A DNA stretch of 64,000 nt from a virus (Duplodnaviria > Heunggongvirae > Uroviricota > Caudoviricetes), in the IMG/VR virus record IMGVR_UViG_2541047857_000009; one strand, 5' to 3'. Below the pieces are notes generated by a model. It did no database searches. It was not told where the DNA came from and saw only the letters and a program-made list of their open reading frames with translations. Position numbers and translations under genes: made by a program. Shown piece after piece: positions 31,217-33,799 of the stretch. Every line of letters begins with the position of its first letter. The stretch's first letter is position 1.

Positions 31217-33799
31217 ATGGCCACTACACCTACTAATCTGCCAGTACCTAGCGAATCCCCGCGCGACCTGAAATTTAACGCAGGGAAAATTGATGAGTTC
31301 GTGACTTCATTCGCTCTTAGTTATATTGACCGCTTTGGAGATGAACACTACACGATTGAAGGATTAAGATGGCTTGCACAGCGGGCTATAGCTGAATTTG
31401 GATGGATACCTATCGGGACATTTCAGAGCGGCGCTGTTATAACTCTACCAAATCAAATATTAAAAGATGAAAATGATGGAGAATACTATAGATGGGATGG
31501 GCCGCTTCCTAAAATCGTTTCTCCTAATTCAACACCTGATAGTGCCGGGGGAATAGGTAAAGGCAAATGGATAGGTGTAGGCGATGCCAGCTTACGTAGT
31601 GCTATTACTGAGACAACGAAAAAATACACTACATTTACAGACGCCATCAATTCTACTATTGATCTAGTTATCGGGTGCGTTATTACTGGTGGAAGAGTTT
31701 CCATCAATGACGGAGGTGGCGGCATATACGTCAGGAACGGAACTGGCACGGCAGGAGATACAGATGGAGGAAGTTACTTTGTTACCCCTGATGGGTCAAG
31801 GTTTGACTTAGTATCACCTGCAAATATTTCAACTTTTGGCGGCGTTCCTGGGCATGACTACCGTGCTGCTCTTGACGGTATAAAATCGTATGTTTCAACA
31901 AGAGATAAGGTAATTAGAATTAATTCTAAAACTATTGTTAGTATGGTATTTACACCAGAGATTCCTGCTGGATACTGGAATGGATTCATACTTGACGTAG
32001 ATGATAGCGTGACAATTAATACCGCAAGCGATGAAGCTGTCAAATCACCATTGGTAAAACTTGTCAGACCTGTAAAATTCTTTTTTACTGGTAATAGCAC
32101 CAGTTATTTATTACGTTCAAGTGTTGGAATTACAAAAGGTGAATATACACCACTTGTTCCAGGTACATTACCAACTCCGCCGATCATAAAAAATGCAAAC
32201 TACACAGATAATAAAACGTTATTTTGTGATATTCAGGATAAAGAAACTCCGGTCTTGACGGTTTTTACCTCTGGATGGTCTTTTCTGTCAGGTGTATGGC
32301 CTATGGGTGTTGTTGCGGATACACCTGCAGCGTCACTGGCTGGGGATGCAGTATCAATTCCAGCCCCTACAGGGAATCTTGTTTTTGCTGCATACAGCAG
32401 AGTGAAGCCGTGCTCTGAATATTTCTTGTCGATGTATGAGGGTGACAACACCGGTGGTCTGCCATGCGTTGTGGTTGAAGCTGAAAGTATGCGTTGGATC
32501 TATTACGAGGATCATTTTGGACATGGTAATTTAATTGAGGGAACAATTGGCGGAGCATACTCTACAAAAAGCATTGCATATGCTGGATCTGATACTCATG
32601 CTTCACAATGGCTAAAAAACAGTATTGCATCCGTTCGTGTTGATACGCTTAAGTCATTCACTATCCTGGTTAACGGGATAGAGCGAGTTACAATTCGTCA
32701 AACCGGGAGAATCATTGGTCGTGTAGGATTTGGATCACTTGGCGATGGCGGTAAGTATATGTCTGTCTTCTATCCATACATTATCGAAAATCGACAATAC
32801 CGCTCTGCAAAACCGATAAATATCGCTGTTGTAGGCGATTCAATCACTGATGCCTCTATGGGAAATGGATGGGTACAGTTCGCGCAACAAGCACTAGAAG
32901 GAACTCACGGCATTCGCGTTGGACGTATGCAGACAATTGCAATAAATGGGTATGCATCAGGAGATATCGCTAATATATTTAATGTCACATCGTTGGATGA
33001 TATCGATGTAGTGCTTTTCCAAATCGGAGTGAATGATATTCAAAGGCAATCCGGACGAGAGGCATTACGAAATAACGTTAAGCAGATGATGCTGACTGCA
33101 AATAACCTTGGGATTCCCTGCATTGTATCTTTGCCTACACAGTTCTATACCAGAGATCAGAGTGTTACGTTAACCGGGGTTGCTGGTTATGGACAGCCTT
33201 CGGCAAATTACGAGCTTGGGGCGCTTTACAGGGCGATACTTGCCAGCACAGTAGCTGTTCGTAATACAGAGGTTAATCAGCCGCTTAATGCCCTGAATAC
33301 TGGTTCTCTTGACGATCTCGGACCAATCGTAGCCGAATATCTCCTGACAAATCAGGACCCTGTTGTTATGGACAACATTCACCCGACCACATACGGAAGA
33401 ATTCTTCTCGGCTTGTCAAATGCCAGAGCTATTGCATCACATATGTTCGGTAGACGTAATGATCCTATAATTAACCACTGGATGCCAGGTGCGTGGGGGG
33501 CAAATAACTGGTCAGTAACTTCACTGGTTCGTGCTGCTGTAACATCATATCCCGATGGTAAAATTGCATTAACTGGCACTATCGCTAACATCGGAACAGG
33601 TATAACCGCCGACGGTACGACAGTATGCAACCTTCCGTTGAGCATCTCGCCAGTTAGGAAAATGGCATTTTCTGTTACAAAACTTGATGCAAGTGGCCTC
33701 CCTATTGGACAGGGTAATATTGTTATTGATACAAATGGAACTGTTAAAATATACGGATTTCAAACGGGGAATGTGTCACTAGACGGGGTGTTATATTGA
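31217..33799 (+). CDS. Tailspike / tail fibre protein with C-terminal SGNH (GDSL-type) esterase domain
   Basis: SGNH blocks IAVVGDSITD, IGVNDI, DNIHPTTYG; AT-rich distal two thirds. Confidence 0.75.
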   Translation: MATTPTNLPVPSESPRDLKFNAGKIDEFVTSFALSYIDRFGDEHYTIEGLRWLAQRAIAEFGWIPIGTFQSGAVITLPNQILKDENDGEYYRWDGPLPKIVSPNSTPDSAGGIGKGKWIGVGDASLRSAITETTKKYTTFTDAINSTIDLVIGCVITGGRVSINDGGGGIYVRNGTGTAGDTDGGSYFVTPDGSRFDLVSPANISTFGGVPGHDYRAALDGIKSYVSTRDKVIRINSKTIVSMVFTPEIPAGYWNGFILDVDDSVTINTASDEAVKSPLVKLVRPVKFFFTGNSTSYLLRSSVGITKGEYTPLVPGTLPTPPIIKNANYTDNKTLFCDIQDKETPVLTVFTSGWSFLSGVWPMGVVADTPAASLAGDAVSIPAPTGNLVFAAYSRVKPCSEYFLSMYEGDNTGGLPCVVVEAESMRWIYYEDHFGHGNLIEGTIGGAYSTKSIAYAGSDTHASQWLKNSIASVRVDTLKSFTILVNGIERVTIRQTGRIIGRVGFGSLGDGGKYMSVFYPYIIENRQYRSAKPINIAVVGDSITDASMGNGWVQFAQQALEGTHGIRVGRMQTIAINGYASGDIANIFNVTSLDDIDVVLFQIGVNDIQRQSGREALRNNVKQMMLTANNLGIPCIVSLPTQFYTRDQSVTLTGVAGYGQPSANYELGALYRAILASTVAVRNTEVNQPLNALNTGSLDDLGPIVAEYLLTNQDPVVMDNIHPTTYGRILLGLSNARAIASHMFGRRNDPIINHWMPGAWGANNWSVTSLVRAAVTSYPDGKIALTGTIANIGTGITADGTTVCNLPLSISPVRKMAFSVTKLDASGLPIGQGNIVIDTNGTVKIYGFQTGNVSLDGVLY

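Follow-up and report, generated by a model that had tools for sequence, protein, structure and literature searches.

The last tail gene of the virus record IMGVR_UViG_2541047857_000009 (Caudoviricetes), of which we analysed a stretch of 64,000 nucleotides (the window), raises the question of what a tail protein with esterase motifs does at the surface of its bacterial host, and on which polymer it would act. The gene is an open reading frame (ORF) of 860 amino acids (aa) that begins with ATG and occupies positions 31217..33799 (+); it closes the tail module and operon and is directly preceded by a TipJ-family tail-tip gene (28681..31158, 825 aa; NCBIfam NF040662; phrog_469), which agrees with a first-pass annotation, made from the nucleotide letters alone, that had called it the last tail gene. 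We refer to its product as a tailspike, or receptor-binding protein. Every base of the gene recurs, at 100% identity, in a chromosomal prophage gene of Escherichia coli XJ5.2 and 20A24, where the prophage is a siphovirus integrated by yciB/yciC. The product (RefSeq WP_001514215.1) is named 'GDSL-type esterase/lipase family protein' in RefSeq and belongs to a PHROGs family of 'unknown function' (phrog_13362); NCBIfam has no model for it or for the acyltransferase encoded next to it. Our preferred explanation, which we hold to be probable, is that the protein is an esterase tailspike, docked to the tail through an adaptor and carrying an exchangeable receptor-binding module, that deacetylates the O-antigen of O45(S88-variant) E. 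coli.

Domain architecture and catalytic residues

The first-pass annotation had quoted three SGNH hydrolase motifs, IAVVGDSITD (aa 536-545), IGVNDI (aa 603-608) and DNIHPTTYG (aa 719-727). All three are present, and far beyond what chance would produce: the Pfam family Lipase_GDSL_2 matches the protein above its gathering threshold (E 7e-9), and an alignment of 30 homologous sequences, relatives of 27-33% identity included, shows no variation at the catalytic residues. Block I (G540-D541-S542; nt 32834-32842, +) follows the first beta-strand of the domain and is the same in all 30 sequences. Equally invariant are the block II residue G578 (nt 32948-32950, +), which the annotation had not quoted, residues G604, N606 and D607 of block III (G604-x-N606-D607; nt 33026-33037, +), and D719 and H722 of block V (D719-x-x-H722, here D719-N-I-H722; nt 33371-33382, +). 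The conservation of both the catalytic and the oxyanion residues down to 27% identity argues for catalysis having probably been retained. We conclude that the module is that of an SGNH esterase-type tailspike, with an esterase activity predicted from its sequence.

Structure prediction bore this assignment out. The domain is modelled with the three-layer alpha/beta/alpha, flavodoxin-like fold of SGNH hydrolases, and its best Foldseek matches (7toh, 3skv, 2o14 and 9kr0) are two-domain proteins that join a sandwich resembling a carbohydrate-binding module (CBM) to an SGNH esterase. In fold the domain is closest to acetyl-xylan esterases and to the carbohydrate acetyl-esterases of families CE2, CE3 and CE16; such a CBM-like sandwich is often present in these enzymes. 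A profile of the 30-sequence alignment matched TesA, lysophospholipase L1-like proteins and acetyl-xylan esterases in the PDB (E down to 7e-11), and a viral structure library returned SGNH tail proteins of the Pectobacterium phages Possum, PPWS4 and CB3 and of the Pseudomonas phages KPP21 and LIT1. Pfam found no beta-helix, pectate-lyase or glycosidase domain in the protein, and its AlphaFold2 model (mean predicted local distance difference test score, pLDDT, 68.7; below 50, and thus of low confidence, at aa 123-202 and 302-371) is without a beta-helix.

The esterase domain is one of several units in the protein. At the N-terminus lies an anchor (aa 1-60; 31217..31396, +) with a helix at aa 15-30, homologous to the helices of Sf11 gp13 that bundle with the adaptor helix of the distal tail protein; in it R16 is nearly invariant and K19 invariant. 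The anchor is followed by a Tail_spike_N domain of the CBA120 TSP1/Gp66 type (aa 61-133; 31397..31615, +), which PF18668 matches over aa 68-123 with E 8.4e-17, above threshold, and to which the matches of CBA120 TSP1, TSP3 and TSP4 and of gp63.1 of phage G7C are confined. Together these 133 residues are ~60% identical to the N-terminus of gp13, the tailspike of the Shigella siphophage Sf11 (PDB 9OCC, residues 1-133; E 6.6e-45), and by homology they form a virion-attachment adaptor, which 234 phage records carry. It ends at a conserved GVGDASLRS junction, and identity to relatives breaks off after aa 133.

Beyond the junction, a neck or middle region with no predicted fold (aa 134-371; 31616..32329, +) is found in the close family only; a word-indexed homologue search with aa 134-535 returned two fragments and made the alignment no deeper, and Pfam has no match for aa 134-371 or for aa 749-860. 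Next come a beta-sandwich of jelly-roll, CBM-like form (aa 372-530; 32330..32806, +), all-beta in the model at a pLDDT of about 70-85, with N486 and G506 invariant in the 30-homologue alignment and a putative role, suggested by the model, in carbohydrate binding; the SGNH/GDSL esterase domain itself (aa ~531-748; 32807..33460, +), which holds blocks I, II, III and V; and a second beta-sandwich of ~110 aa (aa 749-860; 33461..33796, +), whose strands are modelled at a pLDDT of about 70-85. The SGNH blocks do lie in the C-terminal part of the protein, as had been proposed, but the esterase is not its C-terminal domain, since this last sandwich comes after it.

A scan of 1.84 billion cluster representatives yielded 282 relatives at E<=1e-3, 201 of them at E<=1e-10. 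What they share is essentially aa ~335-860, always at the C-terminus, in proteins 600-1250 aa long; the alignments of distant relatives start only at ~aa 335 and extend to query residues about 715-726 of 726, and in about 200 cluster representatives the C-terminal sandwich is conserved jointly with the SGNH domain. We therefore regard the succession of sandwich, SGNH domain and sandwich as a conserved functional unit.

Host O-antigen and proposed action

The O-antigen cluster of XJ5.2 comprises rfbB, rfbC, a gene for an extra NAD-dependent epimerase/dehydratase, two glycosyltransferase genes, wzx, wzy, a gene for a hexapeptide-type O-acetyltransferase and rfbA; its wzx is annotated 'S88 variant O45 family'. 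We used a 4.8-kb block of this cluster, from the hypothetical/glycosyltransferase gene 5' of wzx to the acetyltransferase gene, as a megablast query against 5426 complete E. coli genomes, and found it in 37. The tailspike gene has megablast matches in seven of the same 5426 genomes, and all seven are among these 37 (hypergeometric P 4e-16). The module-bearing prophages fall into three lineages, namely the yciB-integrated siphovirus of XJ5.2 and 20A24, a siphovirus integrated at tRNA-Arg/yfdC in L73 and M37H, and a prophage of YZLc4-1; when only these lineages are counted, P is 3e-7. Among complete E. coli genomes, then, the module is exclusively associated with the O45(S88) gene cluster (7/7). 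The O45 variant antigen of the neonatal-meningitis clone S88 was reportedly found by Plainvert and colleagues in 2007 to matter for virulence.

The genes of the S88-variant cluster fit a repeat unit that contains a 6-deoxy-hexose and is O-acetylated. The reference O45 polysaccharide contains 2-O-acetyl-6-deoxy-talose, according to the passage of PMC12093740 that cites Jann et al. 1995. Because of the O45(S88) association, the acetyltransferase gene of the cluster and this acetylated sugar of the reference antigen, an O-acetyl ester of the O-antigen is the most likely substrate. The first-pass inference that the enzyme acts on an acylated surface polysaccharide is thus supported by fold, catalytic residues and host association, the activity being a predicted one.

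We propose that the protein serves as the tailspike of a temperate siphovirus and is presumably homotrimeric. Its N-terminal ~133 residues would dock it to the tail tip, where, by homology to Sf11 gp13, six trimers would be held by a helix of the distal tail protein. The unit of sandwich, esterase and sandwich would recognise the O-antigen of O45(S88-variant) E. coli, and the esterase, with a predicted Ser542/Asp719/His722 triad and a Gly578/Asn606 oxyanion hole, would remove what we infer to be O-acetyl esters from the sugar that presumably carries them. The protein would probably lack depolymerase activity and leave the sugar backbone uncut, as has been shown for G7C gp63.1. By deacetylating, the virion could make its way, presumably by processive movement, across the layer of O-antigen until it meets the outer membrane, at which point the TipJ-type tail tip would take its turn. 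Residues ~134-860 would be exchanged as one cassette, by recombination at the conserved junction with the adaptor.

Several points weigh against this explanation. The seven host genomes may be partly clonally related, which would inflate the association statistic. Our literature searches did not find a chemical structure for the S88-variant O45 antigen, and its O-acetylation is deduced from the acetyltransferase gene and from reference O45. Sequence similarity to G7C gp63.1 is undetectable outside the adaptor domain, and the two stretches modelled at low confidence (aa 123-202 and 302-371) may conceal a cryptic second activity.

A module tied to one rare O-antigen type makes for a concrete and testable substrate prediction, and is also a candidate serotype-specific binding or diagnostic reagent.

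Module exchange and the acyltransferase slot

Horizontal acquisition of the receptor-binding module, also proposed in the first-pass annotation, is borne out by the domain-wise identities between relatives. In one relative (P0001) the adaptor is 63-65% identical to that of the window protein and the rest 90-97%; in another (P0007) the adaptor is 10-18% identical, aa 134-202 48%, and everything from aa 203 onwards 80-94%. A family of ~800-aa GDSL proteins shows the reverse, with 60-85% identity over the first 60 aa and 6-31% over the rest (for its member P0021, 85% and 6-28%). The adaptor (aa 1-133) and aa 134-860 thus have unlinked histories, and sequence comparison places the exchange of modules at the GVGDASLRS junction.

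The module also stands behind other N-termini: a P22 Head_binding domain in a podovirus-type (P22-like) prophage of Morganella, a T7 tail-fibre N-terminus on a T7-like contig with no lysogeny genes nearby, and, in the third E. coli prophage, that of YZLc4-1, the N-terminal part of a 982-aa protein whose gene adjoins lysis genes. Module shuffling between virion types is evident from these alignments, which present a natural case in which siphovirus-, P22- and T7-type virions all use one receptor-binding module. The YZLc4-1 prophage is otherwise unrelated; its spike gene (L085, 5185-8133) has holin and endolysin genes directly behind it and no acyltransferase gene as a neighbour. Compared at the DNA level with the prophage of E. 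coli L73 (L002), the window is ~100% identical in the TipJ gene, 53-73% in the first 300 nt of the tailspike gene, 75-89% in its middle, 95-99% in the SGNH core (32731-33330), 77-81% in the C-terminal domain and ~55% in the next gene. An SGNH core so much closer to L73 than its flanks at 75-89% points to recent intragenic recombination.

Within phage collections the module has few relatives. Megablast of the gene found no match among phage genomes and, among plasmids, matches to its first 86 nt only; tblastn with aa 131-860 against 50,697 phage records gave five weak matches of <=30% identity, none of them G7C-like. By these searches, the module is found in no cultured phage, has no close relative in one, and belongs to a family with no studied member.

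Composition, on which the argument for mosaicism had been built, does not show what was claimed. The gene was said to have an N-terminal region of typical composition and then to become AT-rich; it is AT-rich from its first codons. Its GC content (GC) is 0.43 overall and its third-position GC (GC3) 0.33, in codons 1-50 GC is 0.447 and GC3 0.40, and over codons 51-150 GC3 falls to 0.26-0.28. The contrast is with the TipJ gene upstream (GC 0.55, GC3 0.71), and we rejected a composition shift within the gene. The break falls outside it, in an intergenic hairpin at 31179-31200, and opens a low-GC island from ~31.2 to ~35.2 kb that takes in the tailspike gene and the next, convergent gene.

That hairpin (31179..31200, +) is terminator-like and GC-rich, with an 8-bp stem of which six pairs are GC, followed by a T-run (T7), and lies 17 nt 5' of the tailspike ATG. 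It is also present 5' of the tailspike start in related loci (L002, L003, L004, L008, L011, L014, L015, L018, L026, L029, L045, L057 and L065). Its position and shape are kept before tailspikes of all types in related prophages, and it is always followed by TTTTTTATGGAA..ATG. The stem sequences differ in Proteus and Morganella, which suggests that the structure of the hairpin and not its sequence is conserved. It may reflect antiterminated transcription of the spike gene, or else serve a different purpose, perhaps to form the end of an mRNA or to act as a linker for recombination.

The convergent gene (33836..34921, -; GC 0.345) encodes a 361-aa membrane O-acyltransferase of the AT3 family (PF01757, E 9.6e-26 over aa 7-342; phrog_3333 O-acetyltransferase, E 7e-63) in which no fused SGNH domain was found, making it AT3-only. 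A hairpin terminator (33805..33824, +) lies in the 36-nt spacer between the two genes, and a sigma-70 promoter-like site with an extended -10 (34989..35018, -), a consensus match only, lies 5' of the acyltransferase gene. The gene is probably, judging from its family, a lysogenic-conversion moron that acetylates O-antigen; by analogy with Sf6 Oac and BTP1 (PMC9558356) it would most simply serve conversion and exclusion.

Could the two genes instead form a write-and-erase cassette, in which the tailspike esterase removes the acyl group that the linked prophage acyltransferase adds to the same O-antigen, or a neighbouring group, perhaps so that the phage can enter hosts that related phages have converted before it, or so that receptors on the debris of lysogens are destroyed? 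We think this rather unlikely. It has in its favour that the arrangement recurs: a convergent acyl-transfer gene follows the esterase tailspike after 27-36 nt, with a shared hairpin, in the window, in L73 and M37H, in the Morganella P22-like prophage, in Proteus and in Kosakonia (equivalent GC-rich hairpins occupy the 27-36 nt spacers of L002, L003, L004, L008 and L011). Behind esterase spikes of 791-794 aa the slot codes for a protein of 359 aa and has a second ORF, 424-481 aa long; this second ORF is an MBOAT protein by Pfam in L008, and in L062 the pairing is deduced from ORF sizes. The 359-aa protein (L008, L062) has one N-terminal membrane segment and no Pfam match, and by its sequence the pair has the look of a phage moron that encodes O-acylation in two components; an IS1 separates the two in L008 (7411-10547).

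To see whether this adjacency is peculiar to esterase tailspikes, we assembled 63 species-representative loci that share the adaptor and ran Pfam on the ORFs behind the spike gene. The next three ORFs of the 52 non-esterase loci include 19 AT3, 10 GtrB, 8 GtrA and 12 GtrC-like proteins. Since tailspikes of every type are commonly followed by AT3 and gtr genes, the slot is a general site for O-antigen-modification morons, and we rejected acyltransferase adjacency as proof of functional coupling. Acyl-transfer systems, of three unrelated types and with no gtr cluster among them, follow the esterase family in 7/9 loci against at most 19/52 controls (Fisher P 0.03), an enrichment that is only suggestive. 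The pair is not co-inherited, as the window and L73 tailspikes are 87% identical and their AT3 proteins 55%, and neither on the T7-like contig nor in the YZLc4-1 prophage does an acyltransferase gene adjoin the module. The host already has an O-acetyltransferase gene of its own in the O-antigen cluster, and in the Sf6 Oac/BTP1 precedent acetylation by the prophage blocks the phage's own tailspike (PMC9558356). If a cassette of this kind did operate, the O-acetylation state would be a single axis for infection, superinfection exclusion and serotype conversion, and the presence of three unrelated acyl-transfer systems, and never gtr genes, behind the esterase family would be accounted for.

Past the acyltransferase gene, at 35259-36913 (+) and 36906-37577 (-), the window carries genes for a UmuD-like S24 peptidase, a UmuC-like Y-family polymerase and an SOS-response-associated peptidase at the prophage end by yciB; polymerase genes of the impB/mucB type lie 3' of the tailspikes in three control loci. 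In XJ5.2 (NZ_CP074354; L001, 9072-16762) the prophage has acquired ISEcp1-blaCTX-M-15, a Tn3 remnant, an IS3 remnant and qnrS1 inside its tail module, between the gene for a 156-aa tail protein and an NlpC/P60 gene; the window is without this insertion.

It is improbable that the esterase is directed not at the O-antigen but at some other acetylated glycan of the cell surface (colanic acid, enterobacterial common antigen or a K capsule, for instance). In favour of this, the SGNH proteins with which Klebsiella prophages bind their receptors are associated with capsule (PMC13123978); colanic acid, too, is O-acetylated, and wcaB and wcaF are present in the host. An exclusive association with one rare O-antigen cluster would, however, be unexpected for a conserved glycan; in addition, the adaptor family is typical of O-antigen-specific tailspikes, for example that of Sf11, and the downstream moron slot holds O-antigen modifiers. 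That the SGNH domain is a non-catalytic binder or a lipase for outer-membrane lipids, the protein being only an adhesin or membrane-perturbing fibre, is suggested by the 'GDSL lipase' annotation and is very improbable given that the catalytic and oxyanion residues are all invariant to 27% identity and that the closest folds are carbohydrate and xylan acetyl-esterases, often with a CBM-like sandwich. Deacetylation of the O45(S88-variant) O-antigen remains the explanation that we favour.

Comparison with known tailspikes

The closest functional precedent is gp63.1 of G7C (PDB 4QNL), which deacetylates O-antigen without cleaving it, and O-acetyl-less mutants resist G7C (PMC10743462, PMC13123978). 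The two spikes share a set of folds, consisting of the adaptor and an SGNH domain with beta-sandwich domains and no beta-helix, although phmmer and profile searches match them only at the adaptor (aa 63-132) and their domains may be arranged differently about the SGNH domain. The phages differ as well, G7C being a virulent podovirus of the N4-like kind and the window phage a temperate siphovirus.

For docking, the model is Sf11, in which the N-terminal helices of gp13 bundle with the adaptor helix of the distal tail protein, with contacts by Arg16 and Lys19, and six trimers sit at the tail tip (PMC12724387). The window has the same tail gene order as Sf11, a baseplate hub protein of similar size (825 aa against 828 aa in Sf11), and both Arg16 and Lys19. 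The C-terminal part of gp13, in contrast, is an Sf6/P22-like beta-helix endorhamnosidase where the window spike has an esterase, and the distal tail protein of Sf11 (gp17) has 457 aa where the window protein at the same gene position has 165 aa (27348..27845, right after the tape-measure gene). This 165-aa protein has an acidic stretch, DDEFDDIIVE, near aa 126-135 and is a candidate partner of the anchor by gene position only.

Other temperate phages also carry receptor-binding proteins with SGNH domains. The Klebsiella prophage proteins 164_08-KL2 and 174_38-KL55 are esterases on p-nitrophenyl (pNP) acetate and are proposed to deacetylate, not depolymerise, surface polysaccharide (PLoS Biol 2026, PMC13123978); unlike the window spike, to which we liken them by description only, they are capsule-associated and come in gp11/gp12 and SGNH combinations. 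Virion-borne SGNH esterases that act on O-polysaccharide acetyl groups are further known from Salmonella phage epsilon15 (gp20) and from Pectobacterium phages PP99 and Possum. In epsilon15 gp20 the SGNH domain is a 'petal' protruding from a beta-helix endorhamnosidase, whereas no beta-helix was detected in the window spike; PP99 and Possum are virulent podoviruses whose spikes match ours at the level of fold only. The classical depolymerase tailspikes of the P22, Sf6 and CBA120 type are built on a right-handed parallel beta-helix, which neither Pfam nor the AlphaFold2 model, of low confidence at aa 123-202 and 302-371, shows in the window spike.

The downstream gene has its own counterpart in Sf6 Oac, the well-studied AT3-only membrane acyltransferase. 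The window protein is likewise AT3-only, of low GC and encoded right after the tailspike. Sf6 pairs Oac with an endorhamnosidase tailspike that acetylation blocks; the partner of the window AT3 protein is a predicted acetyl-esterase.

Tailspikes that deacetylate have only recently come to be appreciated as an alternative to depolymerases, and the characterised ones are few, namely those of G7C, PP99, Possum and epsilon15 and the two Klebsiella prophage proteins. The window tailspike is an uncharacterised member of this known class, and the prediction of its host glycan is what is new.

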